A stretch of DNA of 64,000 bases from IMG/VR virus record IMGVR_UViG_3300031918_000006, positions 1 through 64,000 of that record. The stretch is one strand, 5' to 3'. Under the pieces are notes generated by a model, which worked only from the letters and a program-made list of their open reading frames with translations, was not told the DNA's origin and made no database searches. This stretch comes from a virus. Shown here one piece after another: positions 33,496 to 63,000 of the stretch. The translations under genes were made by a program, and so were the position numbers. The stretch's first letter is position 1. The number at the start of each line of letters is the position of its first letter.

Positions 33496-34533
33496 ATGGC
33501 AGATCCATTGACATCAGATCCTAAACAGCAACAATATACACCATTTAAAGCTTCCGATATTTTAAGTATCGGGAGCATATTTGGAGATGGTTCAGCTGGA
33601 GGAGGAAAAAGAGCATCATTAGTAGACGGATTAATTAATTCTGGAGTTACAGGAGCAATGGCTTATGAACAGAATAACACTAAAGGTGGTACTAAATTTC
33701 AACAAGGTTTAAATAAGAACGCTGCTATTTTTAGTGGCGTTACTGGAGCAATTAGTATGATTCCAGGCGTAGGTACTGCTATTAGTGCAGGATTAACAGG
33801 AGCAAATTATTTATTAGGTAAAACAGCTAAAAATGCCAATAGAATTGGATTAGGTTCTACTTTAGGAACTTCTTCTGGATACGGGGGAACTGCTTCTAAT
33901 ATAGGAGAGCAGGCTAGTAACATTTCTGCTTATAATAATGCAGGAGGTACTAAATTGTTTGGGGGAAATAGAGGAAAACTTAATGAAATTACAAAAAAAC
34001 TAAAAGGATTTCAAAGTACAGCAACAGGAATAGTACAAAATGCTCAAAGACAAATGGCAGCAATTCCAGGAGCAGCACAAAATATTGGTATGCAAAATGA
34101 AATTAATTTTAAAGGCCTCCCAGAAGTAGCAATTGGTAAAAAAGGATTAAAATTAAATACAGAATTCTTAAAAGAATTTAGAGCTTTTAAAGCTGGCGGT
34201 AGTATTGAACTTATTAAAGGTTCTCCTCAAAATGTGATTGTTGATGGTAAACTTCATAAAGAGTTAAATCACATGGAAGATGTTACTGATACTGAAATTA
34301 CTAAAAAAGGGGTTCCTGTTTTAGAAATGGAAGAGGGAGGTCAACTAGGAGAGTAGACTGCTGAGTTAGAAAGAGATGAAATTATTTTTCATCTTCAATT
34401 AACAAGAACTCTAGAAGAACTAGAAAAAGAAGGTACAGATGAGGCTATGATTAAAGCTGGTAAGATTCTTGCAAAAGAAATCTTAAAAAATACCAAAGAC
34501 TCTAGAAGTAAACTATTAAAAAATATACAATGA
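33496..34533 (+). CDS. Putative cargo/ejected protein; 345 aa if the TAG at 34354-34356 is read through (286 aa if it terminates)
   Basis: Gly/Ala-rich hydrophobic segment (AISMIPGVGTAISAGL). The frame continues for 58 codons past the TAG to TGA 34531-34533, which overlaps the next ATG. Confidence 0.75.
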
Positions 34534-35132
34534 TAACAATAGAAGTTAACGATAAAGTCTATAAAGTAGAAGTGGCTCAAACAGATGAAGAAAAAGAAAA
34601 GGGATTACAAAATGTACAAAGTCTCCCAGAAGATGAAGGATTACTATTTGATTATGGTGAACCACAATCTGTGTCTTTTTGGATGGACCAGACTTTAATT
34701 CCCCTGGATATCATCTTTATTGATGAGTATGGAGAAGTAATATCAGTAATAGAAGGAAAACCAAATGATAGAACTCCTATTACAGAGGAAAACGTATGTT
34801 ATGTATTGGAATTAAATGCAGGATCAGGTGTTAGTAAAGGAGATGATGTAGATCTTTCTGAATTAGAAGAGGATTATCAAGACGAAGAAGATGAAGAAAC
34901 TGCAGAACCTACACCTAATAAAATGCATGTATTAACTGAGAATGGGGAATCTCAGATGGAATTGGACGGTGGAGAAAGAATCTTTTCTAGAATTCACACT
35001 AGAAAATTAATATCTCTCTCAAAAAAAGCTACTAAATCTAAGAAAGATTCAGATTATAAAAAATTAGGTAAAAAAGTTTTCGATTATATTGACAAACAAA
35101 ATACTCAGAAACAGGAATTCACGCAAGTATAA
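34530..35132 (+). CDS. DUF192-family domain protein with acidic linker and C-terminal ELDGGE domain
   Basis: VEVAQT.EE..KGL, GLLF, FWM..TLIPLDIIFID and YVLELNAG. Confidence 0.85.
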   Translation: MITIEVNDKVYKVEVAQTDEEKEKGLQNVQSLPEDEGLLFDYGEPQSVSFWMDQTLIPLDIIFIDEYGEVISVIEGKPNDRTPITEENVCYVLELNAGSGVSKGDDVDLSELEEDYQDEEDEETAEPTPNKMHVLTENGESQMELDGGERIFSRIHTRKLISLSKKATKSKKDSDYKKLGKKVFDYIDKQNTQKQEFTQV

Positions 35133-41788: not shown

Positions 41789-44700
41789 ATGGAAAATACT
41801 AAAGATACCAATGATTGGGTAGCCGCTAATTTAGCATTACCTGGAGCTCCTATAGAGGAATTTAAACAGAATAATATCACTCCAGAGAATACTACTTTAA
41901 AAGACAAAGACTTCTATAAAGGGACAAAAACAATACAAGAAACTTTCACTAATCCCGAGAATGGTAAATTTGATGATGATAAATACAATCAATTTTATAA
42001 TTCTATGCTATTCACTTATAATGAATATGCTAATCAAGATGCAGTAGGTAAAGCAGATAAAGACTTTGACTACGCACCCTTTGACATGTTTGCACCGCAA
42101 AATGCCAAAAGAGTACAGGATTTATATAAAATAGAAAAAGTAAGAAATCCTTTTAAAACAAAAGTTGGTATTGAGGATTTTAATTATAAAAGTAAACCCG
42201 CACTTTCTTTAGAGGAAATAGCTCAGGATAATAATGTTAGAGACCATCTTACTGGAAAAGTATTAGATTGGACTCCTAATGATGATAGTGCCACAGGTAT
42301 TTTTGATTTTCTAAAAAGACCTACTTTAGTAGTGGGGCAATATGATGAAGATGGGGAACACTATGATGAGTTTGAAGGAAGAAAAATTAAACACAGAAAA
42401 GGCGATTATAAATTAGATGCAGATGGTAAACCTTATTTTGAAACTTTAGGAGATAGAGAAGTTTATAATAGAGAAGTTTTAAATTGGTCTGATACTCTAA
42501 CAAAAGAAGGTACTTGGTTAAATAAGTATGACTTCATGGATTCAGATGGTTTAGATAAATCTCATATTGGCAGTGTTATGAAAATGGCTGCCAAAGTAAC
42601 TCCTTTATTCATACCTGGCGTGGGTGAAATTTATGCTGCTGGTATTTTAGGAGTAGATTTAATGAATGTAGTCCCAATTCTATTAAAAGCTGGAATAGGT
42701 TCTGTAATTGGAGATAGAGATACTGATAAAGATTACTGGAAAACAATGAATAAAGTACAAGGAGTTGGTAAAACTCTCTCTGCTAATTCTGTTTCAGATT
42801 ACGCTAAAACCAGTACATTTTCTTTTGAGAATATAAGTTCTATGTTGGGTGATGTATTTACACAATTATACACACAAAGAGCTATAGCCTCTATTCCTAA
42901 ATATATAGGAATGAATAAAGCTAGTGTAGAACCTTTAAAAGAAGTAGCTGAGCATTTTGATGATGCTACTATAGCTAAAATATTTGAGGGGTCTCTTACC
43001 ACTGGTGAACGTCATATGATACTTGAAAAAGTACCAGAAGCTGCTAATTACATTGATAGGGCAGTTAAATCTGCTAAGTTATCTAGAGCACTAGCTACAA
43101 CTTATATGTCAGCTACGTCGGCTGCAGGTGTCGCAGATCAAGCCAAAGCAATAGGTCTTGATGAGAGAGACACAGGTCTTTTATATTTAGGAACTTCTTT
43201 AGGCTTTTTTGGTATGATGACTTCATTGCCAATTGGAGAATGGGCTTTGAAAGGAATTGGTCTTGAAGAAACTGGTTTATTAGTTAATAGAGGTATTAAA
43301 GATGCTGCACAACCTTTTGTAGAGGATCTTAAGAAACTAGGTAGTACTATGGTAAAAACACCAAGAGATTTTCAAAAAATCTTTAAAATAGGTAAAGCCA
43401 TTGGTGATGCTGTAGGAAAAAAACTTAGTCATGTGGATGGTTATTTAGGAGCTATGGCTTCTGAGGGAACAGAAGAAGTCACAGAACAAGTTATGCAAGA
43501 TTCTATTACTAATATTTATAATGGATTAGCTTCCTTAGGAATAACTTCAACTCAAGATCCTAAAAAACAGTTTACTTACGGAGATACCTCTGATATAGTT
43601 GCAAACTATGCCATGAACTTTTTTGGTGGTGTAGCAGGTGGAGCTATGTTTAGATTTCATGATCAAATTGCAAATGGCAGTAGAGAAAATGATGAATCTA
43701 CTAAAGATATTTACTGGTTAATTAGAAATGGTTATAAAGATAAATTAGATGCTGCTACTAATAAATTAATTCAAAAGGGATACTTTGGAAGTACTACATT
43801 AACAGCTGAACAGGTAGATATAGATCTTCCAGGAGCTGGGAGAAAGACAGTTATGCGTCCTAAAAGAGATGGTGATTTATCTCAAAATGAAGTTATAGGT
43901 AGAACTATGTTGGGGCTATTTAATAATGTCCAGAATCAAATATTTCAAGAAGGAATTCAACCTGATAGTGCTCTTACCAGAGTGCTTGATGCTAGATACG
44001 ATTTAATAGTAAAAGATTTAAAAGTGAATAGTTCTCTTTATGAGGACCATACTGCTCTTGTAAATGATATTTTAGGATTAAATAATGATATTGCTAAAGC
44101 TTTAGCAGTTCCAGCAGATTTAAACTCTCCTGAATCAACTGTATTAGCTACTGCAGAATCTGTAAATGCTATGCAGATAAAATTAGCAGAAAAAAGAGAA
44201 GCTTTAAAGTTGATTACTTCAGGAGAGGCCTTTCCCTCATATCAAAGCCAGGCTTTATTTAATATGAGTCAGGTACTTAATGGTGCTTTTGGAAATACAT
44301 CTGCTGATGATTTAGCTTGGAATAAATATAAAAAACATTATAGAGGACTTAATGAAACTGAGAAGAAAGACATTGATGAAGAATATGTTGCTTGGAAAGC
44401 TGCTAATAAAAAAGATGCACTTAAATCGGGTTATCGTACATTTAATTTTCTTAATGAAAAATTCTCTCCTAGATTAGCAGAACTAGCTAAATATGCAGAA
44501 CAAAGAAAAGGACACTATACATTAGTAGATGAATTAGGTAATAAAAATAAGTTTAATCTCTCTGCAAATACATTAGCTGAGATTAGCAAATCTAAAAGTT
44601 ATTTAGGTAAAACTTTAACTGTTAGTGAAGCATTAAATGATGCTATTAAAGGAAAAAAAGATGTTAATTCTATTTTAAAAGCAGTGGATGATATTATGGG

Positions 44701-47700
44701 ATTTGTTACCAATCCTAGTATTGACAGACTTGATAAGAATTTTACCAATGAAATGAGGGATGTATTTGACGGGCTCACTTTAAATGATTTAATTGGAGAA
44801 AATGCATCTTTATTTGATACATTAAGTGAGGATGAAAACTTTAATGAAGAGGGATTACCTGGAACTGATTATGACTTATTAAGTATAGATGATCTTTTAA
44901 ATGAGAATCTTACAAGTGTTTTTAATAAACTAGACGCTGCTAAATTACATAATAAAGATAATCAACGTGCATTAAATACAATCACTAAAATCACTTCTTA
45001 TATATTAGGTAATCCTAATGTTAATTTGATGAATAGTAAAAAAGCAGAATTTGAACAAGCTGTGCACGGAAGAACTATTAATACTTTAAATGAATTATTA
45101 GACCAGTTTGATTTTTTACAAAATGGAACTAAATCTACTATTACTCAATTATTAACAAATGAGTTTGAAGCTTTAGGAAAAGTAAATGATATCAATGATT
45201 ATCAAATATATAATCCTAATACTATTGAAAATTTAGAAAGTGCTAAAGTATTACTTGAACGTTTACAAGCTTTAGTTATTGCCTCAACAGAATATGATCA
45301 TAAAAAACATGGTATCTCAGGTTATAATAGTATAATCAATAATACATTTAAAGGATCTCAATTAGGAATTATCACACAAGAACAAGCTACTCCTTTATTA
45401 AAAGAAATTCAACAAATTAATGCAAAAATTGAATTATTTTTAACACTCTCTGCATTTAATAAAGAGAGTAAAGTGAAAAATAATATAGCTTCTGGTATAA
45501 ATATGGAGACTCTGTTCTTTGGACATTTACAAGAAGGTTCTTTTAGAAATATGTTGGATAGTTTAAAAATAGAAGAAGAAGAATTCATTACTCCTGATAT
45601 GGCTAAATCTATCGAGGATGCTAAAACCATAAAAAGATCTTTAGAAATTAAACAATCTAAAGAAGGAGAACTTCCATCTTCAGATGAAGAAGTATTTCAA
45701 TTTGAAGCAGAACGTTTAAAAATAAATAAAGTATTCTTTGAGAGAGTAAAAGAACTTAATTTAAAATATGGAGAAGATAAAATACACGAATTACTCTTTA
45801 ATAATACGTTAGCTAAACAATTATTTCCAGTAGCACAAATGAGTCATGCTACTCCTACTAATTTTAATACTACTACAACTCAAATTCAACCTTTAGATTT
45901 ATTTATATGGTGGAATACAATGGTTACAGAGGATCCTGCAGAATTCTATACTGAATTAAGAGGAGATGAAACAGAACCAGGTAAATATGATGGAATAGAA
46001 ACAAGTAAATATGTTCCATTTTATGCACAAGAGTATTCTGCTAAAATTATATTAAGTTTTCTTGATAATAAAAGTTGGATAAATAAATCTCTTAATTATT
46101 TAGGAGGAGTTGATACAGAAGGCGCTGCTATTACTGGTACTTTTATGGGTAAATTACATGAAACCTTTAAAAATCTGGTATTTGTAAATGGTGTTCCTGG
46201 TGCTGGTAAATCATCTGCTGTTGGTTATACCGTAGCTAAAATATTGAAAAAGAGAGGTAAAACTTTCTGGACTGCTGGCGCTTATGATACACAAGCAAAA
46301 CAATTGGAAACTCTATTAGAAAATCCAACTGCAAATGTTTCTTTTAATAAAACACGCTTATTAGCACAATTTCTTATTCCAGAAGCTGTTACAGAAATTA
46401 CTAATTCTAATGCTTCTTGTTTAGGCAAAGGAAGTATGACTGATATTGTAACTAAATTAGCTGAAAATAAATTAATTAAACTTAATAGAGTAGTAGAGAA
46501 ACAAGAGGGAAAAGAATATGAAAAACTTAAGGTAGGTGAAATTAAACCAGAAGCATTCTTAGAAATAAACAGAAGTACTTTACCAGCAGCAATTTTTTTA
46601 GATGAGATTACTCATTTATCTATGATTGAATTAGAAGCATTACGTCAATCCTTAATACGTTTAGGAGAAGATGCTCCTCTTATAATAGGTTTAGGAGATT
46701 CACTTCAAAATGGTTTTAGAATTGCAGGGGAAGATCATAATATGGATATGTTTAGAACTTGGAATACTCCAAAATTAGCCGGATCATTAAGAACATCTAA
46801 TGATTTAAAGAATACTAATCTTATCAATACAGTTGCTAGATATAGTATGATTACAGAGGCTTATGATAAAGTATTTACTGAACAAAGTGTAGACTATGCT
46901 GCAGTTAAAGCTAATATTGAAAGCATGCATAATCCTGATGATGAATCTACTTGGTATAAATTAGGTCACCATACTAATGAGATGGGAATTGTATTTGGAG
47001 AAAAGGTATCTAATGCTTTAGGAGTGTCTAAAGATTTAAAAAATATCTTAGATAATACAATTGGAACTGTGGGATTTATCACTGATAATAATACCTCAGA
47101 AAATGAAATTTTATCTGGATTAACTCCTTCTCAAAAAAGTAGATTAGACATTAAAAGTATAACTGATGTACAAGGTTTAGAATATGATCACATAGTAATA
47201 GATGTGGATTGGAATGCTTTAGCTCAAGATACTCCTATGGGTCCGCTTAACTTTATTTCAAATGTTTATACTTTAACTACTCGTTCTAGAGTTGGGAGTT
47301 TAATATTGGATAGAAATTTTAGTACCAACAATTATTTAGTAGTTAAATCTCAAGAAGCTAATCAAGTAATTGATGTTACTTTAGATAAAGAAATTCTTAA
47401 AAAATTTAAAGAAAAAAGAGTAGAAGATGTAACTAAATTAGCTAATTTTTTTGAAGGTACTACTTCTGTGACTCCTAAGATTAAATCTAAAGACGTTACT
47501 CCAGCTATTCTTCCTGTATCTGCTACTGAAAGTTTTGCTCAAGAAATTAAGAGAATGGACGAGGAAATTGAGGCAGCTGAAGCTGGTAATAGTTCTACAA
47601 ATAGACAAATGCCCACATTAGATCTAGCTCAAAAAAATACTCATTTAATGACTTACCCTTACTATGAGAGAGTAGGAGTTCCTGGAGAAGATGCTCTTAT

Positions 47701-49945
47701 CTTTGGTTTAGAAGATGGAGAAAAACCTGATTTAAAATTCCTTATGGATATTAAAAACTCTGTATTCTATGGGGCAGGTGAAGATAAAATTATGGAAATC
47801 CTTAAAAATAAAGGAATTGATAATATTGATAGTTTAAAAGTAGTTGTGAGAGCTTCTATGTATAATCCTGTTACCGATACTGACAATTCTAAAGTTGTAA
47901 GTGGTAAAAGGGATGCTGATCAAGAGTTAACTACAAAAGATGTGTTTTTAAGGACGGCTTTAAGAATTGAACGTTCTGATAATACTGGAAAGTTATCGCC
48001 CTTTTATATTACTTTAGGTGTATTTTCTTCTCCTAAAAGTACTTCAAAATATGATTATAAAAATGATGCTAAATTAAGTGATGTACTTAAAGATGTTACT
48101 GCTAAAGCAGAATTAGCTTTAAAAACTTCACCTAGTGTTGATTTAACAATTAATCATAGTAATCCTCTTGAGTTATTAAAATATACTACTAATATTCAAC
48201 TTGATTATTTAGAAAATCCAATTAGTTTTAAAGATTTTAAAGAAGATCTTAGTAGATCAGCTGTAGTTTCTCCTATTCATATTTTTACTGGACATAACAG
48301 TGCAGTAGCAGGCAGTCCCTCACAAAATCAGAGATTAAATGAGTGGATTAAAAAGGGAAATAACTCAGCTAAAGAAAGATCATTGGCCGGGAGGGCAGTA
48401 GTATTTGTATCTTTTGATAATAATTTAAAGTCTAGTGAATTAGCAGATAAATTTGCAGAAGAGATTATGACTAATAGTCCTAATCCTAGAGTAAAAGCTG
48501 TGATGTTAAATTCTAAAGGAACTGATCCTAAAATTTGGTTCGAAAATGCTTGGAATACTTTAGCAGATGCTAAAAAGAAACCTACTGAAAGAGTTGCGAT
48601 GGGAACTTTAGCATCTCAACATATGGCTACTTTTATGGCTAGTACTATTAAAATGATGGCAGACTCTTCTAAATATACAGGAAAAACAGAGATCATTAAG
48701 ACTATTGCAAAGACTATAATTGAGAGACTTGGTACTGGTGAGGGTAATATGAATATTTTAGAAATAGATAGAAATGCAGAAGAAGCATTTAGATGTAAAG
48801 TTAAAGCTTATACGGATGATAAAATTAAAAATCCAGAAGAGTACTTAGCCTCAGCTGCTGCTGGTTATCTTAAATTAAAACCAAATCAAAGAATCTCTGC
48901 TTTTAACTTTAACCATACTTATAGATTATTAGTAGGCATGGGTATAGCAATGAATGGAGGTTTACACTCTGAAAGTGCAGAAGTTAAGCAGTATTTTGAA
49001 CCTATTTCTAAATATACAACTCAATATGGAGAATTTTTAGAAGAATTTTATAGTTTACTTAGAAAGGAATTTGTACATGGTATATTTTCACATCCTTCTT
49101 ATAATATTAGAGGGCCACGTACTAATAATGATTATGCTCAAATAGTAGAAAATGAAGAGGATGATTTTGAAGTAACAGCTCGTGCTACACTTCCTAATTC
49201 ACTTTTAAATCTTCAATTAGTTATGGATAATAAACAGTCTTTAAATAAAGAACAAACTGAAAAATCTAGAAATTTATCAAGTATCTCTGATTATATAACT
49301 TTAAGACAAAATAGTATGTCTACAGAAATGATTGAGGAATTTATTAGAGGAGCTGGTGCCATTAGAAACTTATATGATGTAGGAAAAGAAACCTCTGTTG
49401 CTGCAATTATGTCAAATATTGACGCTCTTTATGATAAATTATCAAAAGCAGTGTATACTACCTCTAATTTAATAGACGGTATTAATAAAATGCAATGGAC
49501 TAATACTGAAGTCTCTCAAAAAGATGTAAGTAATCCTGAGAATAAAATTCAGAATAATGGGGATGGTTCTTTTGTAGTTACAGGAAATAATGGTAAATTT
49601 GACTTCGAAATAAAATATAATATGAATGAATCAATCGAAGAAAATAAAATGAAAATCACTACTAATGAAAGACCTATTCCTTTAGAAGAAGTTGGTAACC
49701 TTATACAAAAAACTACTGATTTAGTAAATAAATTTAAAATGCAATACTCAGACATTATTCCTGAGGATATATTTGCAAATGTATTAAGTGCTCTATCAAC
49801 AGGAACAAGAGAAATAGTACCAGGAAGTGCAATGCAAATGGCATTTGCACAATTATCTGCACAAGCTCTTACATTAGATGATGAAGCATTACTAAAAACT
49901 TTACATGACTACACTAATACAAAAGACATCAATACTTGTAACTAA
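41789..49945 (+). CDS. Giant virion protein with hydrophobic N-terminal region and SF1 helicase-like P-loop domain
   Basis: 2718 aa with motifs GVPGAGKS (near 46190), IFLDE (near 46600), LGDSLQ, VQGLEYD and YTLTTRS, plus an EGTEE..EQ..Q motif and candidate TM helices. Confidence 0.8.
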   Translation: MENTKDTNDWVAANLALPGAPIEEFKQNNITPENTTLKDKDFYKGTKTIQETFTNPENGKFDDDKYNQFYNSMLFTYNEYANQDAVGKADKDFDYAPFDMFAPQNAKRVQDLYKIEKVRNPFKTKVGIEDFNYKSKPALSLEEIAQDNNVRDHLTGKVLDWTPNDDSATGIFDFLKRPTLVVGQYDEDGEHYDEFEGRKIKHRKGDYKLDADGKPYFETLGDREVYNREVLNWSDTLTKEGTWLNKYDFMDSDGLDKSHIGSVMKMAAKVTPLFIPGVGEIYAAGILGVDLMNVVPILLKAGIGSVIGDRDTDKDYWKTMNKVQGVGKTLSANSVSDYAKTSTFSFENISSMLGDVFTQLYTQRAIASIPKYIGMNKASVEPLKEVAEHFDDATIAKIFEGSLTTGERHMILEKVPEAANYIDRAVKSAKLSRALATTYMSATSAAGVADQAKAIGLDERDTGLLYLGTSLGFFGMMTSLPIGEWALKGIGLEETGLLVNRGIKDAAQPFVEDLKKLGSTMVKTPRDFQKIFKIGKAIGDAVGKKLSHVDGYLGAMASEGTEEVTEQVMQDSITNIYNGLASLGITSTQDPKKQFTYGDTSDIVANYAMNFFGGVAGGAMFRFHDQIANGSRENDESTKDIYWLIRNGYKDKLDAATNKLIQKGYFGSTTLTAEQVDIDLPGAGRKTVMRPKRDGDLSQNEVIGRTMLGLFNNVQNQIFQEGIQPDSALTRVLDARYDLIVKDLKVNSSLYEDHTALVNDILGLNNDIAKALAVPADLNSPESTVLATAESVNAMQIKLAEKREALKLITSGEAFPSYQSQALFNMSQVLNGAFGNTSADDLAWNKYKKHYRGLNETEKKDIDEEYVAWKAANKKDALKSGYRTFNFLNEKFSPRLAELAKYAEQRKGHYTLVDELGNKNKFNLSANTLAEISKSKSYLGKTLTVSEALNDAIKGKKDVNSILKAVDDIMGFVTNPSIDRLDKNFTNEMRDVFDGLTLNDLIGENASLFDTLSEDENFNEEGLPGTDYDLLSIDDLLNENLTSVFNKLDAAKLHNKDNQRALNTITKITSYILGNPNVNLMNSKKAEFEQAVHGRTINTLNELLDQFDFLQNGTKSTITQLLTNEFEALGKVNDINDYQIYNPNTIENLESAKVLLERLQALVIASTEYDHKKHGISGYNSIINNTFKGSQLGIITQEQATPLLKEIQQINAKIELFLTLSAFNKESKVKNNIASGINMETLFFGHLQEGSFRNMLDSLKIEEEEFITPDMAKSIEDAKTIKRSLEIKQSKEGELPSSDEEVFQFEAERLKINKVFFERVKELNLKYGEDKIHELLFNNTLAKQLFPVAQMSHATPTNFNTTTTQIQPLDLFIWWNTMVTEDPAEFYTELRGDETEPGKYDGIETSKYVPFYAQEYSAKIILSFLDNKSWINKSLNYLGGVDTEGAAITGTFMGKLHETFKNLVFVNGVPGAGKSSAVGYTVAKILKKRGKTFWTAGAYDTQAKQLETLLENPTANVSFNKTRLLAQFLIPEAVTEITNSNASCLGKGSMTDIVTKLAENKLIKLNRVVEKQEGKEYEKLKVGEIKPEAFLEINRSTLPAAIFLDEITHLSMIELEALRQSLIRLGEDAPLIIGLGDSLQNGFRIAGEDHNMDMFRTWNTPKLAGSLRTSNDLKNTNLINTVARYSMITEAYDKVFTEQSVDYAAVKANIESMHNPDDESTWYKLGHHTNEMGIVFGEKVSNALGVSKDLKNILDNTIGTVGFITDNNTSENEILSGLTPSQKSRLDIKSITDVQGLEYDHIVIDVDWNALAQDTPMGPLNFISNVYTLTTRSRVGSLILDRNFSTNNYLVVKSQEANQVIDVTLDKEILKKFKEKRVEDVTKLANFFEGTTSVTPKIKSKDVTPAILPVSATESFAQEIKRMDEEIEAAEAGNSSTNRQMPTLDLAQKNTHLMTYPYYERVGVPGEDALIFGLEDGEKPDLKFLMDIKNSVFYGAGEDKIMEILKNKGIDNIDSLKVVVRASMYNPVTDTDNSKVVSGKRDADQELTTKDVFLRTALRIERSDNTGKLSPFYITLGVFSSPKSTSKYDYKNDAKLSDVLKDVTAKAELALKTSPSVDLTINHSNPLELLKYTTNIQLDYLENPISFKDFKEDLSRSAVVSPIHIFTGHNSAVAGSPSQNQRLNEWIKKGNNSAKERSLAGRAVVFVSFDNNLKSSELADKFAEEIMTNSPNPRVKAVMLNSKGTDPKIWFENAWNTLADAKKKPTERVAMGTLASQHMATFMASTIKMMADSSKYTGKTEIIKTIAKTIIERLGTGEGNMNILEIDRNAEEAFRCKVKAYTDDKIKNPEEYLASAAAGYLKLKPNQRISAFNFNHTYRLLVGMGIAMNGGLHSESAEVKQYFEPISKYTTQYGEFLEEFYSLLRKEFVHGIFSHPSYNIRGPRTNNDYAQIVENEEDDFEVTARATLPNSLLNLQLVMDNKQSLNKEQTEKSRNLSSISDYITLRQNSMSTEMIEEFIRGAGAIRNLYDVGKETSVAAIMSNIDALYDKLSKAVYTTSNLIDGINKMQWTNTEVSQKDVSNPENKIQNNGDGSFVVTGNNGKFDFEIKYNMNESIEENKMKITTNERPIPLEEVGNLIQKTTDLVNKFKMQYSDIIPEDIFANVLSALSTGTREIVPGSAMQMAFAQLSAQALTLDDEALLKTLHDYTNTKDINTCN

Positions 49946-52900: not shown

Positions 52901-55900
52901 CTCCTTTATTAATTTACTATACTGAAATGTATACTGATAAATCAAAAACTACTCCTGCTTTTACAAAAATGATGAAAGCTAACGAATTGCTTTTTGCTAA
53001 AAGTTTAAACTCATATAATATGAATATTGAGTACATGGATGGTAAAGGAAGTCTTAATCCTTTATTTATTCGTAAGGGTACCTCAACTATTTTTGATACT
53101 TTAAAAATAGCAGATGAAAAAACAGGAGATAGAATTACTAAAGAGAATTTTGAAAAAAATTGGGTAGATCCTTCTACAAAATACTTAACCATTTATAAAG
53201 GAGGAGAATTAAATCCTTTGCTTAGACATTATTTTTACATGGATAACTATATTTCTGAGAATTTATCTCAAGCTAGTATGGGGACTATTCATAATCATCC
53301 ATTTAAAGGAAAAGCTAAGGCTAAACCTGGTACTTTTGAGTTCTTTACTGAAATAGAATCTGCTAAAACAGCTGCTATGTATAAAAGACAACTTCAAGGT
53401 ACTCCCATGAAACCTTTGAATTTAAATTTAATCAATGGTGTACGTGAAACTATGAGTTCTGTATTTTTAACTGATATAAATAATCCAGTTTATACTAGTT
53501 TTGGAATTAAAGATAAGATGACAGTAACTGACGGTTCAGCGCAAGTAACCCCTTTACAATATATTCTACAAAACAATTCATTACTAGAAAATTCAGTTGG
53601 TCCTAATGCTAAGATGTTTAGTTTATTTATGGATCCAAAGTATAACTCATATGGTTTAACTAAATATGCAGAATTTGGTATTACTAATGAAATGATTCAA
53701 AATTCTAAAGGTTCTACTTATGATCTTATGAATTTAATAGAAAAAAGTTACAGGTATAAACCTTTTACTAGGAGTATTACTATTGAGGAATTTAATCCTA
53801 ATACATTTGATTATGATAAAACTTTAGTACAATATACTCCAGATATCTTAAAAGATTTTAAGGGTAATAATATAACTATTGAAACAATTGCTCCTAATGG
53901 ATTATTCTATGTAAAAAATGATCAAGTATATGAGATTAAATCTTTAACAAGAGGTACTACTATAACTCAACCTTCTGGAGAAGTAATAGTAGCAAAAGGA
54001 GAATCAAATGATTTTCAGGTGCAGGCTATAAATTTAACCACTGGAATGGCCGAAGTTCCTAAATCTGTTAAAATAAATGATTTATTTGATTTATGGCAAG
54101 CTTTGGGGGCCGAAAATTCAGTATCTATTGATAAAGAAGGACAATATTCTGGTAGTAGAAATCCTGGAGAGACATTAAACTTTACTGAATCTGATGCTTC
54201 TCATTATGCTTTAGCAGAATTTGTAAATAGAGTAGGCCATAAAATGGATTCTAATCAAAAGGTTAATTTAATCAATAAATATGGTTTAAGAGATCTATCA
54301 GATCCACATACTAATGCTATATACTCTAAAGAAACTGAGGCTAATTTTGTAAAATTATTTCCAGAGTTTAAAGTAAATAAAACTGACTTTAAAGTACACA
54401 ATCAGACAAATACATGGCAACCTTTAAAAGCAATGTTCATTGGAAAATATATCCACACATCTGCACAAAAGTCAGGTGCTATAAATGTGCATAATATCGA
54501 TGATGTGTATAACCAAACAAAACCAATTTATCCAGTAGATGTTCCAGCAATTTCTACAGGATTACTTATGACTACAGAGCATGAAGTAGAAGGCTCAGAG
54601 ATCACTAAAATGACTCAAATCTATAGTGCTATAGAATTTATGGGTGATTCACATAATGTGTCTAGTGGGGTTTATAATGCCATTGCTGACGTCTTAAATA
54701 TTAAACTTAAATCTTTATTTGATGCTACTGAATTCCAAAATGTAAATAAAGAGGCATTATATAAAGAAGTTACTGACAATTTGATTCGCACATTTAACTC
54801 TAAAGACCAACAATCTATTGGTAAGTTCATTGGACAGATGGTAGAAAGAAATTCAGACGAGATAAAAGCATTTACAGCTCAAGCCAAAGAAGCCGAAGCT
54901 ATCACAGAAGATGCTACAGGTGAAGAGCCTGGAGTAGCTAGTACTATGAGTATGAGTATAGTTAGAGATGGTAAAAGAATGCCTTTTAGTACTTATATGT
55001 ACAGTTCTTTTATATCTCTTATGAGTAATTTTTTAAATAAAGAGGCTATTAAAGATAAACAGTCTGGCATTGCCTCTCCTATTAAACCTTCTGGAGGTAT
55101 GCTTCAAGTGTATGATTCAGAAGATATTAATGGTAAAAAAGATGTACTTTTAAGAAAAAATTACGATAAATTAAATGCTGCTGAAAATATAGTGGAAGCC
55201 CCAATTACTATTGGAGAGATTTCTTTAAATGATTGGGTAAGAGAAAGTGATGGTAAAACTATGAAAGAGTATCAAGTAAATACTCCAGAAAAGTTAATTG
55301 CACTTAAAAGAAAGGATACAGGAGAATCTGTTCCAGTTCAAACTTTTAAAGGATTTTGGACAAGAGGTACAGTACAAAATGATACTAATAATGTTTATCT
55401 ATTTGGCGATAATACTAACGATAGGATGGTTACTAAATATATTCCTGGGGCAACCCAAGCTGTTATTAGAGGACTTCCTAATGCTATAGGAATTGATACA
55501 AAGAGAGATAGAGGTACTACAAGTAAATCATTCTTAACAGATGCTGATCTTCCTTGGTTTAAATCACATGTAGACGAGCAATTAAAGAAAGCACAAGCTT
55601 TAGGTAAACCTATTATCCTTCCAGAAGATGGAATTGGAACTGGAAAAGCTATGTTAAAAGAGAAAGCTCCTGCATTATTTGCATACTTAAATGAGGCTCT
55701 ATCTAAATTAGAAACAACTAAACCTTCAAAAGTAAAATTTGTAAAATTATATGGTAAACCAAGAGATTTACAACCACCACTTTTAACTTTTAAAGTTATA
55801 GGTAAAGGAATGAAAGAATCTCCTATGTCTATTTATGAATTACCTGATTTTGCAATGGTTTATGACTATAAAGAAATTTTGGAAGATAAAAAACCCATGA

Positions 55901-57549
55901 CTGCAGAGTTAGGTTCTTTTTTAACTAAGAGATTTCCAGGAGAAAATATTGAGAAATTAATGAAGAATACCAAATTAGTAAACAATGCTTTACGAGTTAA
56001 TATTCAAAGTATTTTTAATAGAATTGATACTCAACATAATGTCTTAATTAACGGAAAAGAGTATCCAGTAGAAGTGTTAACACGTTCTTCTGGGGAAGCC
56101 ATTGGCCCAAATATTTATAGAACTATGTTTGACTTACCTAAGGGAACTTCAGTTAATCAAGTTACTGAAGATTTCTTATTTCAAAGAATGTATGATAAAT
56201 CTAAACCTGCTATCAATGATAAAAGTTGTTATGCTTACGTACAGAATCCAAATGGAAATCATATCTACATTTTTAATAAAGTTCCAACTGAATTTACAGA
56301 ATATACTCAAGGTAAACAGATAAAAGAAATTAATGGACAGTATTGGGTAGTAGATGGTAATGGTGATCCCAGATATATAGCCCCATCAGGTCTTACAGGT
56401 ACAGCACTTATTGGTGGAAAAAGAGTAGAAGTAATTGTCACTAATGATTTACCAAGTCTTCAAAAAACTCTTCAAGAGACTAAAAATTATGACAAAAGTT
56501 TACAAACTGGTAGAATTTATAATGTCAACGAAAATAATGATGCTATTCTTAAAGAAGAGTGTGCTATTCTAGCTAAAAAAAGATTTTCTAGTTTTAGAAC
56601 CACTTTAAATTATATTGCAGCACGTATTCCCGGACAAGGTTTCCAATCATTTACTGATTTAAAACTTGTAGACTTTATTCATACAGAAGGTAATACAGTT
56701 ATGACTAACCATTTTACTTCCTGGTTAAAAGGAGAGGATTATGATATTGATAAAGGATTCTGGCTTGGATTAACTCTTAAAAATGGAATTGTAGTAGGTT
56801 GGGCTAATGAATTTGATTATAGCTCAGAAGAATCTCTTATAGCTTCTATGTCTCTGCCTTATCCTGATAAAAAATGGAGAAGTTTAGACACAGAAGATAG
56901 TATTGATGATCCTGCAGAAGTTACACTTACTAACGAAGAAGTAGATAGCCTATTTGAAGAAAATATGTCCAAATTACGTAGTGATACTTTAGTTAAATTA
57001 GGTAATATTGATAATTATAATTTCTTAGGAGAAAATCACACAGCTTATGAAGTACAAGAAAAAGTTAATGAATACTTTATGCAAACTATACCTTTAAATG
57101 CTATGGAAGATGCTGTTAAGAATAAAATGGCTTGGGGTATTAGAGATGCTGTAGTTAAACCTGTAAACTTAAATCATACAGAGTCTCCTATTGGAATGGA
57201 AGAACTTAGAGATGAAGCCACGGAAGCTAATAGAGTTGTAAGTAATAATAATCCAATGAGTAAGGCTGATTTTCAATATGCAAACATGGTTGGTAAGAAT
57301 GTAATTGGTATTGCAGCTGTTGCATTAAAGATTTGGAGTGCTGCTTCTTTCTACGGAAATGATAAAGTAAAAAAGGGAGAATTTGCTTCTATATTAATGG
57401 ATAAAAATCTCAAAATTAACGGAAAAAATCGTTATATTGCGAGCCAAGCAAACCTTAACTTTAGTGCGAAGGCTTCTACTGTAATTACAGATGAATATAT
57501 TGCTGATCAAGTAGGTAAAAATAATATTGAGGAAAATTGTAATGGATAA
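49945..57549 (+). CDS. Virion RNA polymerase, catalytic (double-psi beta-barrel) polypeptide
   Basis: 2534 aa with TDG (near 53527), RIPGQ..QS, and the metal-binding DxDxD motif in GEDYDIDK (DYDID at 56737-56751), comparable to DFDID of phi14:2 gp66. GKNVIGIAA lies near the C-terminus. Confidence 0.88.
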   Translation: MRNNCGLISTNASIELMGVFNNFIKTLYKKGAKNNYARLEDKIAEYLYDKHRKDDKNDALTPEESHFIEQQFILYTAAVKPILTKSRIDTKFAEKIWGDSTAVKPIELFLADVQKALIEGSETTLTEKVKNLYEVSPEDTSLIPAPKEELIPTPPLEGETKITKFTDISNKMDLKEVFANANTAYLLLERRVSNHIVRNYLINQETGVYNSSSNSVDKSVKANKTRIYKELIKNFEQKGIKFVDSERDYYVNGRINDNIKSVLDRIADYYKKYDGTGITNIKLEEWTQNNINEISDFINFVTISNFDNLLLSYGKGIFKISDSYLNSANEKYDEPKYVLDIASNINDSIFQTGEYNLSDEQSSLFKMFISSMPSVTFDKQVSHDKEIDLNTVNTVMAKLLHGNLLEGAPIYDPTNSMESMKALLEFAINNFTGEGKKIKSFDKIEKDTLLSVYMYFFRNNDELTTKHPKVLLNNSLRSAIQVAYGNDTESGFKNIPSFYHLASNSEVISGMDYFNVIVSNFDKTYLNEYTEYTYDKDRGTITVNSPTERLINSSEIQFTNNLNNFINQEFNKTFLENRYKDVTIEGKESDMPTVRFELSKGVFITANLANGGISITDGIKTTDSKALDFKISPIQEQKLVEILNKILPQLQLRDDKGNDFYYPLFTQVFSPTLDDHVEALTALAKVAGYVAYTSSMVNEIGKDGLLGSKWMKNFGADKSPYIKDDEEFSIARMFPGYSDIAKNIGKGLSIINGETHKAVIKVGNVTVPTIGEVRHLYALPKWRNWLIKQNGNKLTGMPIASNLFMRNPDFLKGFKIRSFVKSGDNVKHSSEMAPLEIATTFIMHDYIAAANKYNEVYIQSTVFADKNSHNSVVVKLNEEIQIPGITNKISLSNVTATELKQAAFLNNATYYKAISDKLTSTYIPVLQTLLPGTTIESTLQGVHDAMSKVQEQDFRNAFYKHYNGSEYIIEDLGIEKNKKDGTCGLSPLLIYYTEMYTDKSKTTPAFTKMMKANELLFAKSLNSYNMNIEYMDGKGSLNPLFIRKGTSTIFDTLKIADEKTGDRITKENFEKNWVDPSTKYLTIYKGGELNPLLRHYFYMDNYISENLSQASMGTIHNHPFKGKAKAKPGTFEFFTEIESAKTAAMYKRQLQGTPMKPLNLNLINGVRETMSSVFLTDINNPVYTSFGIKDKMTVTDGSAQVTPLQYILQNNSLLENSVGPNAKMFSLFMDPKYNSYGLTKYAEFGITNEMIQNSKGSTYDLMNLIEKSYRYKPFTRSITIEEFNPNTFDYDKTLVQYTPDILKDFKGNNITIETIAPNGLFYVKNDQVYEIKSLTRGTTITQPSGEVIVAKGESNDFQVQAINLTTGMAEVPKSVKINDLFDLWQALGAENSVSIDKEGQYSGSRNPGETLNFTESDASHYALAEFVNRVGHKMDSNQKVNLINKYGLRDLSDPHTNAIYSKETEANFVKLFPEFKVNKTDFKVHNQTNTWQPLKAMFIGKYIHTSAQKSGAINVHNIDDVYNQTKPIYPVDVPAISTGLLMTTEHEVEGSEITKMTQIYSAIEFMGDSHNVSSGVYNAIADVLNIKLKSLFDATEFQNVNKEALYKEVTDNLIRTFNSKDQQSIGKFIGQMVERNSDEIKAFTAQAKEAEAITEDATGEEPGVASTMSMSIVRDGKRMPFSTYMYSSFISLMSNFLNKEAIKDKQSGIASPIKPSGGMLQVYDSEDINGKKDVLLRKNYDKLNAAENIVEAPITIGEISLNDWVRESDGKTMKEYQVNTPEKLIALKRKDTGESVPVQTFKGFWTRGTVQNDTNNVYLFGDNTNDRMVTKYIPGATQAVIRGLPNAIGIDTKRDRGTTSKSFLTDADLPWFKSHVDEQLKKAQALGKPIILPEDGIGTGKAMLKEKAPALFAYLNEALSKLETTKPSKVKFVKLYGKPRDLQPPLLTFKVIGKGMKESPMSIYELPDFAMVYDYKEILEDKKPMTAELGSFLTKRFPGENIEKLMKNTKLVNNALRVNIQSIFNRIDTQHNVLINGKEYPVEVLTRSSGEAIGPNIYRTMFDLPKGTSVNQVTEDFLFQRMYDKSKPAINDKSCYAYVQNPNGNHIYIFNKVPTEFTEYTQGKQIKEINGQYWVVDGNGDPRYIAPSGLTGTALIGGKRVEVIVTNDLPSLQKTLQETKNYDKSLQTGRIYNVNENNDAILKEECAILAKKRFSSFRTTLNYIAARIPGQGFQSFTDLKLVDFIHTEGNTVMTNHFTSWLKGEDYDIDKGFWLGLTLKNGIVVGWANEFDYSSEESLIASMSLPYPDKKWRSLDTEDSIDDPAEVTLTNEEVDSLFEENMSKLRSDTLVKLGNIDNYNFLGENHTAYEVQEKVNEYFMQTIPLNAMEDAVKNKMAWGIRDAVVKPVNLNHTESPIGMEELRDEATEANRVVSNNNPMSKADFQYANMVGKNVIGIAAVALKIWSAASFYGNDKVKKGEFASILMDKNLKINGKNRYIASQANLNFSAKASTVITDEYIADQVGKNNIEENCNG

Positions 57550-60049
57550 AGGATGTATACATACATACAAAGGCGTAGAATATAGGAATTATCAAGATTT
57601 AAAAAATGCATTAATTGAGGAGCAGAGTAGTCACTACTTTGCTCCTTTTATGGCTGCAGTTTTAGAAAAATTAAAGAATAATCCCGATATAACGGGCGTG
57701 CAAGAGATTGAAAAGGTCGTGAAAGAAATTTCTGATCAATTTATGTTGAAAGAAGATGTTAGTTTAACTTTGAGTCAGTTATTAAGTGCTGCTACTGATA
57801 ATGCTAAAGAATTAATCTTAGCTAAAATTAATGCAGGACCTGAAACTGCTGGAGTTTATGCATACTTAACCATGTTAGGAGTTCCTTTTAAAGAAATTGC
57901 TCAAATGATGAAGAGTGATGCAGTTAAATGGGTTATTGAGAATTCTCGTAAAAATATTTTTGATAAACAAACTGATTTTAATAGTATTAAAAGTTCTATT
58001 AAAGAGTTTGAAAATGGCCCTAACGTATATAAATATTTAGATTTTGATAGGGCCAATATTTTTTCTAATATTCTAAGAGATAGTTTAAAAAATAGTACTT
58101 TTTTAGGAGCACTTCCTTATGGTAATATATTTAAAGATCCCGAAGTAATTAAGATTCTCTCTAATACTGATAAAAAGAAAGGCCCAGTCGTAAAAATGCA
58201 TTCTATAGGTGCTTTAATGTCTCCTATAGATATTACAAGTAAAGTTGGAGATACAATAGTAACTAAATCTTTAGATTTTAATATTTCTAGAGAAGATATT
58301 AGTGAATTTTACAAAACTTTGCAAGAAGGTAATTTTATAAAAGAGTCATATGAACCTGTAGTTAATAAATATACAGAAGACGAGGATATGGATATGGGTT
58401 GGGAAGATGGTGAAATTAGAAGTAATAAAATTCCTGTAAAAATTGAGGTATCTAGATTTATACAAAAAATGATAGAATATTTAGATAAAGCTCCAGAAGG
58501 AGACATATCTGAATTTGCTAATATTATGGAAGATTCAAAAGAAGTTCTTATCTTAGGTAGAATGCTTTCTATAAATCAAGGTATTAAAACTGATAGTTAC
58601 TCTCAATATGCTTTTTTTCAGAGAGTTACTGATTATATAATTGAAAAAAGCAAAGGTAAAATGTCTTTAGAAACTCCAGAGAAAATGATGTCTGAGATGA
58701 TGGAAGAAATGCCTACTCATAGAGTAGACCCTAAATTTTTAGAAGAAGTTATGAAAAGATTCGATTTTAAAAAATTTTTAGGGATAGGTTTAACACAAGA
58801 AGACGCTACTATTTATAGAGAAACTAGTAAATTGTGGTATAATAAGATTAAATCCTCCTTTAATATTTTAGCTATTGTCTCTGATACTCCCCATTTTAAT
58901 GCAATGCTAGGAGTTTCCTCTTTAATGGAAAATATGAAAAGCATGCTCTCAGTTAAAGCAAAATTAGTTGATAAATTAATTAAAGATGTTTATGATAAAC
59001 ATATTATAGCTTCAGATTTAACTGAGGAACAGATGGAGTATAAAACAATTGCTGATAAGGACTATTTTAAAATTATGGATTTTGCAAATGATTCTATTAT
59101 ATTAAAGTGGATTCGTTCTTTAGACGACTCTAAGAGAATTTTTGCACATGATTCAAATACTTATCACACTATTGTTGATAATAAGATTGTTAAAGTTACT
59201 GAAGAAAATAGGGAGAGATATCCACGTAAAATTGATGTTAGTAGTGCTGAGGGAAGACTAGATTTTATAGACATGGTTCATGAGATGATGTCTGTGTTAA
59301 AAGATGGAAAATTCTTAGTTAATGGTGAGTATAAAGAACATCCTCTTCTAAAAAACAATGCTTTTATACATTCATTCGATATTGATAAGAAAAGAGATCC
59401 TTTAACTGGTAAAAACAATAAGTTCTATAAGCTTCCTATGAATATATTAAATGTAAATGAAGCTAATACTCATAAGTTTAATAGTTACTTAATTGGATTT
59501 TCAGACTTAGCTAAAATTGAGTATAATGGAGTTAATATACAGAATTTATTATTCTTATATAATACTTTTATTCACAGGGATAAAATTAATAGAGACTCTT
59601 TAACAAAATTGTTTGAATCTTCTACCTCTGGTATTGAACATACTATGATGGGTGATTTTATTAAATGGGCTGGAGATTTTGATTGGAATGAAAAAGAATT
59701 ACAATCTTTATCCGAATCTAAAGAGTATGATTATGATATAGACGATATTATAATTAAAGGATTGGCTACTAAGATCTTCTCAAAAAACTTGGATAGAAAT
59801 GTAGGAAAATATGCTTATGCAGTCTTGTATAATGCTTCTACAGGAGAGTCTACAAAGCAATATTATGAGTGGAACAATAGTGCTAGTACTTATCAAAAAT
59901 ATGATCACTTTAGTAGTGATTTAGCAATAGCTTCTAGTGCGGGATCACAAATTGGAGTACAAAGAGGAAATGCAAATGACTTTAATGCTACTTTAAGAGA
60001 AATCTCAAATAGAGGAATAATAATAAACAATGTAAAAATAGAATGTTAA
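57542..60049 (+). CDS. Virion RNA polymerase, C-terminal part (separate ORF)
   Basis: ATG 57542 (MDKGC...) overlaps the upstream gene end and is preferred to TTG 57527. Contains LLSAATDNAKELIL, the motif that normally follows the catalytic barrel in crAss-like RNAPs. Confidence 0.75.
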   Translation: MDKGCIHTYKGVEYRNYQDLKNALIEEQSSHYFAPFMAAVLEKLKNNPDITGVQEIEKVVKEISDQFMLKEDVSLTLSQLLSAATDNAKELILAKINAGPETAGVYAYLTMLGVPFKEIAQMMKSDAVKWVIENSRKNIFDKQTDFNSIKSSIKEFENGPNVYKYLDFDRANIFSNILRDSLKNSTFLGALPYGNIFKDPEVIKILSNTDKKKGPVVKMHSIGALMSPIDITSKVGDTIVTKSLDFNISREDISEFYKTLQEGNFIKESYEPVVNKYTEDEDMDMGWEDGEIRSNKIPVKIEVSRFIQKMIEYLDKAPEGDISEFANIMEDSKEVLILGRMLSINQGIKTDSYSQYAFFQRVTDYIIEKSKGKMSLETPEKMMSEMMEEMPTHRVDPKFLEEVMKRFDFKKFLGIGLTQEDATIYRETSKLWYNKIKSSFNILAIVSDTPHFNAMLGVSSLMENMKSMLSVKAKLVDKLIKDVYDKHIIASDLTEEQMEYKTIADKDYFKIMDFANDSIILKWIRSLDDSKRIFAHDSNTYHTIVDNKIVKVTEENRERYPRKIDVSSAEGRLDFIDMVHEMMSVLKDGKFLVNGEYKEHPLLKNNAFIHSFDIDKKRDPLTGKNNKFYKLPMNILNVNEANTHKFNSYLIGFSDLAKIEYNGVNIQNLLFLYNTFIHRDKINRDSLTKLFESSTSGIEHTMMGDFIKWAGDFDWNEKELQSLSESKEYDYDIDDIIIKGLATKIFSKNLDRNVGKYAYAVLYNASTGESTKQYYEWNNSASTYQKYDHFSSDLAIASSAGSQIGVQRGNANDFNATLREISNRGIIINNVKIEC

Positions 60050-60050
60050 C

Positions 60051-63000
60051 ATGGCATGTACACTAACGTTCACTTTAGGTGGAATAAAATATAATATACC
60101 TGCAGAAGGTAATCTTGCTGATTATGACGGAAAAAACCTCACAGATATATTAGGATCTTTAGATTCTCATACACAAATTAATTTATTAGAGAATATTTTA
60201 AAATATTCTAACATTCAGCCGTATGATTATGAAGAAAATCCAACTGTAACTAATTTAATAGCTTCTAATAATATTCCGAATATTAGTGTAAGCAAGTTAA
60301 CAGAAAAATTAGGAGATTTAGTTTTACCTGATGGATCTAATCATTTTAAATTACGTCAAGTAGTTTTAAGTATGTTAAATGAAAAGACTGATAAAATATC
60401 TTTAGTTTCTGCACAAATCACAGATGGTTCCAAAAAAGGACATGGAGTATTTATTTCACAAACTGGAAGTATCTATGTGCATGCTAAACCTAATGATAAA
60501 ATTGATACTCTTGAGGATTATTTTTTAGGAAAGGATAGCAAAGTCTTACTAGAACGTCTTGCTCATGAATTAACTCATAGTAAATTAGATGCATTAATGG
60601 TTAATCAACCAGAACTTGCCAAGGAATTAGTTGAGGAATGGAATTCAAAAAAAGGAGGATTATCTGATGAATTTAAGAGTATTAAAAGTAGTATTGACAA
60701 GTTAAAAACAAATGAAGCAAAAGCAAACGAAATTATTGCTTATTACTTTAGTGATTTCCAATTACAAGGGGCTTATCAAAGTAAAACACTAGAAGATGCT
60801 TTTAAAAGTATGGTTTCAAATATAATTCCATTAGAAACAATAGTTTCTACTTCTACTCCTGGCTATTTTGATTCTTCCAATCCATATGAGGATTATGACC
60901 ATTCTAGATATAAGAATCATTGGGATGATCCTGTTTGGCAATATAGACATCCTGAATTAGAACCTCCATTCACAGGAGATACTAATGCTTCTCTTCAAAA
61001 AATGGTTGCAGAGATAGATCCAACTTCTGAGAATTACCAAGCAGATAAAGCTAAACAAATCTTAGCTAGATTTAATGCTAATACCTCTGATATTCAAGAA
61101 AATTCTGAATTTAAATACCAGAAATATGATGTTTCTTATGGAGCACCTATTGTTATTGATGATTTTAATAGAGATATTCAAATCTTAAGATTAGCAGAAA
61201 ATGACTTGGTATTAGTAAGTAAAGATATCTTCCTAAATCCCAAAACAAAAGAATGGGAAGCTAGGCCTACTAAAAAAGGTGAGGAAAAGTCTTCATATCG
61301 TCCTGTTATTAGTACTTATATTAATGCTAATAATGAAGTAATGATTAATCTACCTATTAAAGATGGTAGTGGTAAAACATATTCTCTACCAGCTAAGTTT
61401 GTAGAAAGTTTACGTAAATATGATGGAGATTTAATAGATACTCCTTATAATAAAGAAAAAGCTAAAGAATATGCAGATTGGATGGTTGCTAATGTAAATT
61501 CAGCATATGGTGATGATCCTGCCGATAGTTCTATAATTAGAACTATAGATATTACTTCTAAAACTGGAAAAAGCTTTCAAATTTCAGTGGCTTCTAACTA
61601 TGAATCTTATGGATTTAAATTTTATAACCAAGAATCTGCTAGAGAAATCTATGATGGAGCTGAAGTTGGAGATGTAGTTAAAGTGTTTATAAAAGAAAAA
61701 GGAGATAAGAAAGCGGGAGGATATCGCGCTAAAATACTACGTAAATTTGGAAACTCAGTTGAAGTAGTTACTTCTAAAGGTGCTGTACTTATTGTAAAAC
61801 CCTCTGCTATCAATGAGGTAATCTATTTAAAAGAAAATCATCCAGACTTTTTATCACAAGTAGAAAATATTGATAAAGGGACTATTAGCCAAGATCTTAT
61901 TGATGATGGTAATAGTCAATTTAGAAAATATCGTAAAGTAAATTTTGTATCACAAAATAAAAAAGATGGGGAATTTCAAGATAAGATTAATGATTATTTT
62001 GATATTTATTCAAAAGAAGATTCTGCTATTAAAGTAGAGAGACGTCGCGCTGAAGTTAAAAAACTTAAAGCCGGAGATCTTATAAAGGTTAAATGGTATT
62101 ACACAGATACAAAAACTAAAGAAGATAGAGAAGTGTCACACTGGTATCCAGTAGTTACTAAAACCTCTGATTTAGTTTACTATTACAATTCTACTTCTGA
62201 GAAAGTATCTTCTGTGAATATTTTAGATGGTAAAGGATATGAAATCTATGGATTAGCTATAAATAATACAAATTCTTCTAAATTATTTGATGAATTTAAT
62301 GAAATCAGAAAAAGTATAGAAGGATTACGTAGAGATGATACTGGTACATTACTCTCAGATGATGCTATTAAAAATAACTTAGGAGAAGCTCTTAGAAATG
62401 CAGAACCATCTAGTTTACAAGACATTTATCATATCACAGAAATAGAAGATGTAGATGAAGTAGCAGCTGGAGAAGATAATGACCTTAAATTATCAGTATC
62501 TCAAGTACAAAGAGGTAGTATTGTTAAAGCCTATGTATTTGATATAGATGAAGAAGGTAGAGACAAAAAAACTAAAATTTATAAATGGTTTGTAGTAACT
62601 GGCTTTGATGAAAACACTGGAAGACCTATATGTGTTACACAAACTAAAGATAAAAATGGTAAAACTGGTGTATATAAAGAATATCCAATTGAATTTCAGA
62701 ATATTAAAGCAATAGGTCATAGATTAACTGATAATGCTGATTTAGGAATTTATGGAAATAAAACTCTAAAAGAATACTTAGATAAGTTAAGAAAAACTTT
62801 TGATACTATTAGTGAACCTATTTTTATTACTCAAGCTGAAACTCCTAAATATGAGAGATCAAATAGAACTTTTAACACAGCTTTATATGGTTTACTTAAA
62901 AACGGAAAGATGGGTTATGCAGTGTCTGATAAATATGTAATAGAACAATTTAAAGATAAGACTGATTTTGAAGAATGGAAGAAAAATACACCAGAAGCTA

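Follow-up and report, generated by a model that had tools for sequence, protein, structure and literature searches.

The window analysed in this work (64,000 nucleotides (nt), positions 1 to 64,000 of the IMG/VR virus record IMGVR_UViG_3300031918_000006) belongs to a 115,598-bp phage contig and represents its structural arm, in which a run of giant plus-strand genes comes after those for the terminase and the portal. Five consecutive proteins of this run, hereinafter P3 to P7, carry a cysteine (Cys) at every terminus that faces another member of the series. The comparison with related loci, together with the analogy to a solved phage structure, makes it probable that P3–P7 are the RNA polymerase cargo block of a divergent crAss-like phage (8957 amino acids (aa) together, about 1.0 MDa) and that this cargo is tied head to tail, the C-terminal Cys of each protein being bonded to a Cys at position 3–5 of the next one. 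A link between consecutive cargo proteins through these residues is very probably real, and it would most likely be a disulfide.

Terminal cysteines in the window

All eight termini located at the four junctions of the P3–P7 series harbor a Cys; the outer ends of the series and the neighbouring proteins P1 and P2 do not. The codons of the first three pairs are reported in Table 1; the fourth junction falls outside the window, and there P6 Cys1392 (of 1394 residues) faces P7 Cys4. P1 and P2 are devoid of Cys over their 1969 residues, and none is found at the P1/P2 or P2/P3 junctions. Furthermore, internal Cys account for 0.16% of the residues in 165 distinct giant open reading frames (ORFs) of the family, against 1.08% for a set of 77 other ORFs from the genome. 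At the latter frequency, a Cys would be expected by chance within five residues of about 5% of termini, and at eight termini out of eight with a probability of about 6e-11. The pattern is, thus, far beyond chance.

An earlier note, made on this DNA from the sequence alone, had counted three, five, and two Cys in P3, P4, and P5, respectively, and had located a Cys no more than five residues from the end at the six termini of the first three junctions, with P3 lacking an N-terminal one; translation returned exactly the same picture. The hairpin-like pattern recognised there at two N-termini proved to be general, the Cys being followed by hydrophobic residues at +2, +4, and +6 and then by Asn/Gly-Gly. 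The candidate membrane helices attributed to P3 were borne out weakly, by one hydrophobic 19-mer (residues 281–299).

Table 1. Giant genes of the block and cysteine codons at the junctions (window numbering).
Feature	Position	Strand	Length (aa)	Cysteines	Remarks
P1	35875-39969	+	1364	0	Upstream, cargo-like; outside the proposed Cys-linked chain
P2	39970-41787	+	605	0	Upstream, cargo-like; outside the proposed Cys-linked chain
P3	41789-49945	+	2718	1544, 2336, 2717	First chain member; no N-terminal Cys
P4	49945-57549	+	2534	5, 983, 2095, 2206, 2532	N-terminal part of the virion RNA polymerase
P5	57542-60049	+	835	5 and 835 only	C-terminal part of the split polymerase
P6	60051-64235 (beyond the window end, 64000)	+	1394	3, 861, 1392	
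P7	64246-68676 (past the window)	+	1476	4	Last chain member; no C-terminal Cys
P3 Cys2717 codon (TGT)	49937-49939	+			Second-to-last residue
P4 Cys5 codon (TGC)	49957-49959	+			Proposed partner of P3 Cys2717
P4 Cys2532 codon (TGT)	57538-57540	+			Third residue from the end
P5 Cys5 codon (TGT)	57554-57556	+			Proposed partner of P4 Cys2532; pair limited to the split-polymerase lineage
P5 Cys835 codon (TGT)	60044-60046	+			Last residue
P6 Cys3 codon (TGT)	60057-60059	+			Proposed partner of P5 Cys835

Conservation of the cysteine pairs and gene rearrangements

The analysis was extended to 83 related loci, including 80 further ones from IMG/VR, and TAG/TGA recoding was allowed. Every junction between ORFs of at least 300 aa was scored, and the counts given below refer to distinct tight junctions. 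The tabulation of Cys at the termini of adjacent giant genes, which the earlier note had proposed as a check, revealed both co-occurrence and co-absence: the two Cys were present at 101 out of 109 junctions, and both or neither at 106. Among the remaining eight, three are located upstream of the chain, one is downstream of its last member, one corresponds to an in-frame stop inside a gene, and two have the partner Cys just beyond the cut-offs (at position -15 and at position 10). Moreover, only 1 of the 48 distinct last-chain proteins possesses a C-terminal Cys, and it belongs to a locus truncated at the contig end.

The position of the two residues is narrowly confined, since the C-terminal Cys lies within 0–2 residues of the end at 93 out of 101 junctions and the N-terminal one at positions 3–4 in 86 out of 101. 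The distance from the stop or the start codon varies among junctions, and a TGY triplet occurs in frame at 101 out of 101 junctions on each side, compared to only 1–16 out of frame. This in-frame-only enrichment argues, in turn, for selection acting at the protein level.

The same residues persist among very distant homologs. The search for P5 homologs retrieved 120 proteins, down to about 21% identity, and essentially all the full-length ones end with a Cys followed by 0–2 residues. In an alignment of 40 sequences (19–26% identity, with one at 56%), P5 Cys835 is one of 16 invariant columns, together with the polymerase motifs. In the N-terminal 220 residues of the P6-like proteins (14–20% identity, with one at 74%), Cys3 is one of only two invariant columns.

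The comparison of split, unsplit, and fused genes was particularly informative. In most relatives, P4 and P5 correspond to a single protein of 3100–3500 aa, with P4 alignable to residues up to about 2500 of these unsplit polymerases. In the window lineage, the polymerase is truly split between two conserved blocks, GIAAV and TDNAKEL (window 57290-57830), the two genes overlapping by 8 nt without any insert. Some 46 additional residues are present at the P4/P5 split and carry the two Cys, and the unsplit polymerases lack a Cys pair in the homologous stretch. Likewise, where a P6-like gene is split into parts of 334 and 550 aa, one additional pair is present; the unsplit homologs mostly have two Cys, both terminal. 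The fused gp33 of crAss002 does not harbor any close internal Cys pair. IAS virus also has its polymerase split at a comparable place, and the sequence at the junction is related.

A further 28 "loose" junctions do not exhibit the pair. Most of them are inserts of about 0.2–2 kb that interrupt the polymerase gene, in most cases exactly at the catalytic DYDID motif, and these inserts are allelic with uninterrupted genes (for instance, L021 versus L022; they were also observed in L003, L033, L038, L059, and other loci); therefore, the loose junctions do not represent protein ends. The L021 insert spans about 1.1 kb (8016-9100), and one insert gave a sub-threshold Rfam match to group I introns (23 bits, expect value (E) 0.0026). 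No Cys is found at the interruption of the intron-interrupted polymerase genes.

Named crAss phages were located through crAss001 gp49, and the pattern was found in three Crassvirales families and in two phages outside the order:

i. In phi14:2, gp078, gp077, and gp076 comprise 5398 aa with four Cys, and each of these lies at a junction terminus (gp078 Cys1797, gp077 Cys3 and Cys2179, gp076 Cys3). By position and length, these proteins appear to be g067, g066, and g065, respectively, of bioRxiv 10.1101/2020.03.07.982082.

ii. In crAss001, the sole Cys is residue 2339 in gp47 (2341 aa) and residue 5 in gp49; gp50 (2412 aa) has three, at positions 5, 1334, and 2404. Both this phage and IAS virus have the gene of the first chain member on one strand and those of the other two on the opposite one, and the pairs are still kept.

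iii. In crAss002 (Intestiviridae), the sole Cys of gp32 is residue 2019 of 2020. Its gp33 shows Met-Ser-Cys at residues 33–35, which suggests that the annotated start is probably 32 codons too far upstream. The gp32/gp33 spacer is 170 nt long and contains a strong inverted repeat (L086 9270-9375).

iv. The TAG-recoded cr4_1 (Suoliviridae), whose gp26 is a fused protein, conforms to the rule. Two phages from outside the order do so as well, namely Leptolyngbya phage Lbo-JY46 and Cellulophaga phage phi17:2. In Lbo-JY46, each protein has one Cys: a 1552-aa protein ends with it, and the 2748-aa protein that follows has it at residue 4.

Taken together, these comparisons strongly support a partnership between the C-terminal Cys of one protein and the N-terminal Cys of the following one: Cys pairs appear where the chain is broken, are missing from unsplit or fused forms, and do not require gene adjacency.

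Nature of the link and alternative explanations

Contrary to the earlier note, which knew of no description of such a linkage, one case has been described. In the structure that cryo-electron microscopy gave for cyanophage A4, a disulfide joins gp27 Cys1715 to gp26 Cys5 in the internal pre-ejectosome; the portal axis is encircled by a folded pentameric ring of bonded gp27 and gp26, and the bond is termed stabilising (PMC12002296). According to the A4 genome (Anabaena phage A-4L), the two genes are adjacent and these residues are the only Cys of the 1717-aa gp27 and of the 1114-aa gp26. As in the window, a Cys near the C-terminus of one large protein faces a Cys near the start (position 5) of the following one; however, A4 has one such junction instead of four, no RNA polymerase takes part in the pair, and the bond was neither generalised nor connected to gene splits or fusions (PMC12002296). 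The resemblance is one of signature, not of demonstrated descent. In the literature, no paper was found that deals with terminal Cys in crAss-like phages or states a general multi-junction rule, and the terminal cysteines are mentioned neither in PMC10172136 nor in bioRxiv 10.1101/2020.03.07.982082. Peculiar to this window are the proposed five-member chain and the additional Cys pair present where the polymerase is split.

Other phage systems bear on the same point. The virions of crAss001 contain inter-protein disulfides in the tail, and gp47, gp49, and gp50 are carried in the capsid as cargo and have to unfold in part for exit (PMC10172136). The gene block, its order, and the terminal-Cys rule are shared by the window with crAss001 (gp47/gp50/gp49) and phi14:2 (gp078/gp077/gp076), and the Crassvirales block likewise includes a DxDxD polymerase with one zincin-like neighbour; in crAss001 and phi14:2, these are virion proteins by mass spectrometry. 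The window lineage is very divergent, and its chain has five members owing to the split polymerase and to a separate P6-like protein. In Schitoviridae, the ejected giants (N4 gp50 and DEV gp71–gp73), which include the virion RNA polymerase, have a Cys content far below that of the proteome, and an earlier suggestion holds that this avoidance reflects the passage through the oxidising periplasm (PMC11445570). Schitoviridae ejection proteins are essentially without Cys, whereas the members of the window chain keep one Cys per facing terminus; P1 and P2 match the Schitoviridae-type Cys-free feature, and the chain proteins do not.

Short terminal elements that put consecutively encoded giant proteins in order are also known from polyketide and non-ribosomal peptide synthases, i.e., their docking domains. 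In those enzymes, the contacts are non-covalent, serve catalysis and not delivery, and follow no Cys rule.

Some crAss-like phages fuse the three cargo proteins into one polyprotein (bioRxiv 10.1101/2020.03.07.982082). Because of these fusions, considered together with the A4 disulfide, the tail disulfides of crAss001, and the Cys avoidance of N4-like phages, the most economical explanation would be that a disulfide substitutes for the peptide bond between separately encoded proteins. One copy of each protein would then give a linear, unbranched chain running N-to-C in the manner of a polyprotein, and the link would secure one-to-one co-packaging. Owing to the extreme terminal position of both Cys, the linked proteins could pass out through the tail serially, like a single thread; the reducing host cytoplasm might then separate the chain members. 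We put forward only tentatively the whole of this scenario, in which the links would replace a polyprotein, about 1 MDa would thread out N-to-C in gene order, reduction in the cytoplasm would both cut the thread and activate the polymerase, and each break would be patched by a Cys pair.

Complex prediction was performed on the C-terminal 180 residues of P5 and the N-terminal 220 residues of P6. The score was 0.35 versus 0.00 for the best control, with a contact agreement among runs of at least 36% and a partner pLDDT (predicted local distance difference test) of at least 68. In the benchmark, 0.35 was reached by 58 out of 80 solved complexes and by 2 out of 110 mismatched pairs; when only scores up to 0.60 are considered, just 7 of the 80 solved complexes remain at or above the mark, as do both mismatches. 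The model, thus, gives weak support to a docking of the C-terminal strand of P5 on the P6 N-terminus. In the AlphaFold2 model of the P6 N-terminus (mean pLDDT 59, too weak for a fold search), a hairpin at residues 3–18 starts at the Cys. That of the whole P5 has a mean pLDDT of 68, with residues 1–32 below 50 and the last 12 residues in coil (block means of about 53–56). With respect to the linkage as first proposed, the pairing of Cys from adjacent termini stood, being supported by co-occurrence, co-absence, the new splits, the non-adjacent genes, and the A4 structure, whereas the docking of a strand on a hairpin is weakly modelled.

Several observations weigh against the disulfide-linked chain. 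For crAss-like phages, the bond is postulated from sequence comparison, and similarity of A4 gp27 and gp26 to the window proteins was not detected (phmmer against a 29-sequence set, best E 0.017); moreover, the A4 bond sits in a folded pentameric ring, not in a demonstrated thread. Locus L004, 1 of the 8 non-conforming junctions, is a genuine exception in which the upstream Cys is missing, and IAS virus has a Thr in place of the N-terminal Cys of P5, in a record with ambiguous bases. The monomer models assign low confidence to both P5 termini. Finally, the hosts are gut anaerobes, which leaves the time and place of oxidation in question.

A possible, although not probable, alternative is that the bond acts as a static staple inside a folded internal body, fixing assembly and stoichiometry, with neither thread nor redox signal. 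The A4 pre-ejectosome described above is a body of this kind, with a bond regarded as stabilising (PMC12002296). However, a staple would not need Cys confined to the extreme ends (the 93 and 86 junctions out of 101 mentioned above), which an unbranched thread would need, and several lineages tolerate the genetic fusion into polyproteins (bioRxiv 10.1101/2020.03.07.982082).

It appears improbable that the terminal Cys share a metal ion (for example, zinc or iron), to whose binding the free amino or carboxyl terminus or acidic neighbours might also contribute. Such a bridge would be workable in a reducing host, and the residues before the C-terminal Cys are often acidic or amide (Glu at -2; Asn, Asp, or Glu at -1); on the other hand, each junction offers two thiols only, with no conserved His or further Cys nearby, the strong avoidance of other Cys is better explained by the need to prevent wrong disulfides, and the sole solved case, that of A4, is a disulfide.

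Still less credit can be given to the idea that the terminal Cys are not paired across the junction and are instead engaged with a second copy of their own protein or with a different component of the virion, or have a separate role. Homotypic disulfides would be compatible with the sequence data alone, but the both-or-neither distribution, together with first members that have the C-terminal Cys alone and last members that have the N-terminal one alone, argues against self-cyclisation and independent roles, and both Cys arise together at new splits.

The probability of chance, or of a nucleotide-level feature of translationally coupled junctions, is practically negligible: the genes do overlap or nearly abut and TGT often occurs near stop/start codons, but the enrichment is limited to the reading frame at variable distances from these codons, and the pairs are conserved at about 20% protein identity and with genes on opposite strands.

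Three more specific candidates were rejected. A junction nucleotide motif or translational coupling was ruled out by the frame test and by the opposite-strand genes of crAss001 and IAS virus. Intramolecular N-to-C cyclisation was ruled out by the first members with a C-terminal Cys only, the last ones with an N-terminal Cys only, and the several single-Cys proteins. Split inteins, which would need fragments of tens of residues flanking the catalytic Cys at the break, were ruled out since the Cys are placed 0–5 residues from the C-terminus and at position 3–8, without space for such fragments.

No viruses are more abundant in the human gut than the crAss-like phages, whose cargo to deliver amounts to about 1 MDa, including the polymerase that starts the infection. 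How it passes through the narrow tail is an open question raised by PMC10172136. For a disulfide-linked chain, the rule of one Cys per facing end could explain an ordered, one-to-one delivery, and perhaps also a redox trigger acting on the polymerase, which in phi14:2 has been noted to be inactive. If true, lineages could freely split or fuse cargo genes, patching each break with a Cys pair. From a practical viewpoint, terminal Cys help annotation, since they mark true protein ends, distinguish gene splits from introns or recoded stops, and correct start codons, as in crAss002 gp33.

Gene content of the probable cargo block

The giant block is located on the structural strand, downstream of the terminase, portal, and muzzle-like genes. 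In the window, profile matches assigned the terminase to phrog_6681 and the portal to phrog_6547, both crAss-type, and the ORF 28148-33481 gave a weak match to the gp44 muzzle protein (phmmer, 20-sequence database). The spacing of the P3/P4, P4/P5, and P5/P6 genes is -1, -8, and +1 nt, respectively, and in the window the block reads cleanly under genetic code table 11. A 173-nt gap (window 34356-34530) separates the ORFs 33496-34356 and 34530-35132.

The sole significant family match in the block is Pfam DUF7831 at residues 1800–1917 of P4 (window 55342-55695; E 9e-25); apart from it, the PHROG and Pfam scans of P1–P6 returned nothing useful, and P3 and P4 did not match any PDB sequence. P4 carries, at residue 2265, the catalytic motif DYDID (DxDxD of two-barrel polymerases), and P5 carries, at residue 85, the TDNAKEL motif, invariant in the 40-sequence alignment. 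Against the same 20-sequence database, phmmer gave marginal matches of P4 with phi14:2 gp077 (E 9e-4) and of P5 with crAss001 gp50 (E 7e-3); the tblastn search of P5 against the phage collection retrieved one distant record only.

By position, the counterparts of P3 are crAss001 gp47 and phi14:2 gp078. In P3, a stretch at about residues 1458–1518 (window 46160-46340) gave sub-threshold matches to the P-loop NTPase families AAA_16, Viral_helicase1, and AAA_30 (E about 0.02). P6 contains two HExxH motifs, a zincin-like one at residues 172–176 (window 60564-60578) and another at residue 1227 (contig position about 63729); the first one is kept in several P6-like relatives and fits the zincin-like protease reported for the neighbour of the phi14:2 polymerase.

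Lastly, in about one third of the related loci (L004, L008, L013, L020, L043, and various ones among L051–L083), long ORFs emerge only when a coding function is given to TAG or TGA, which indicates stop-codon recoding in those lineages.

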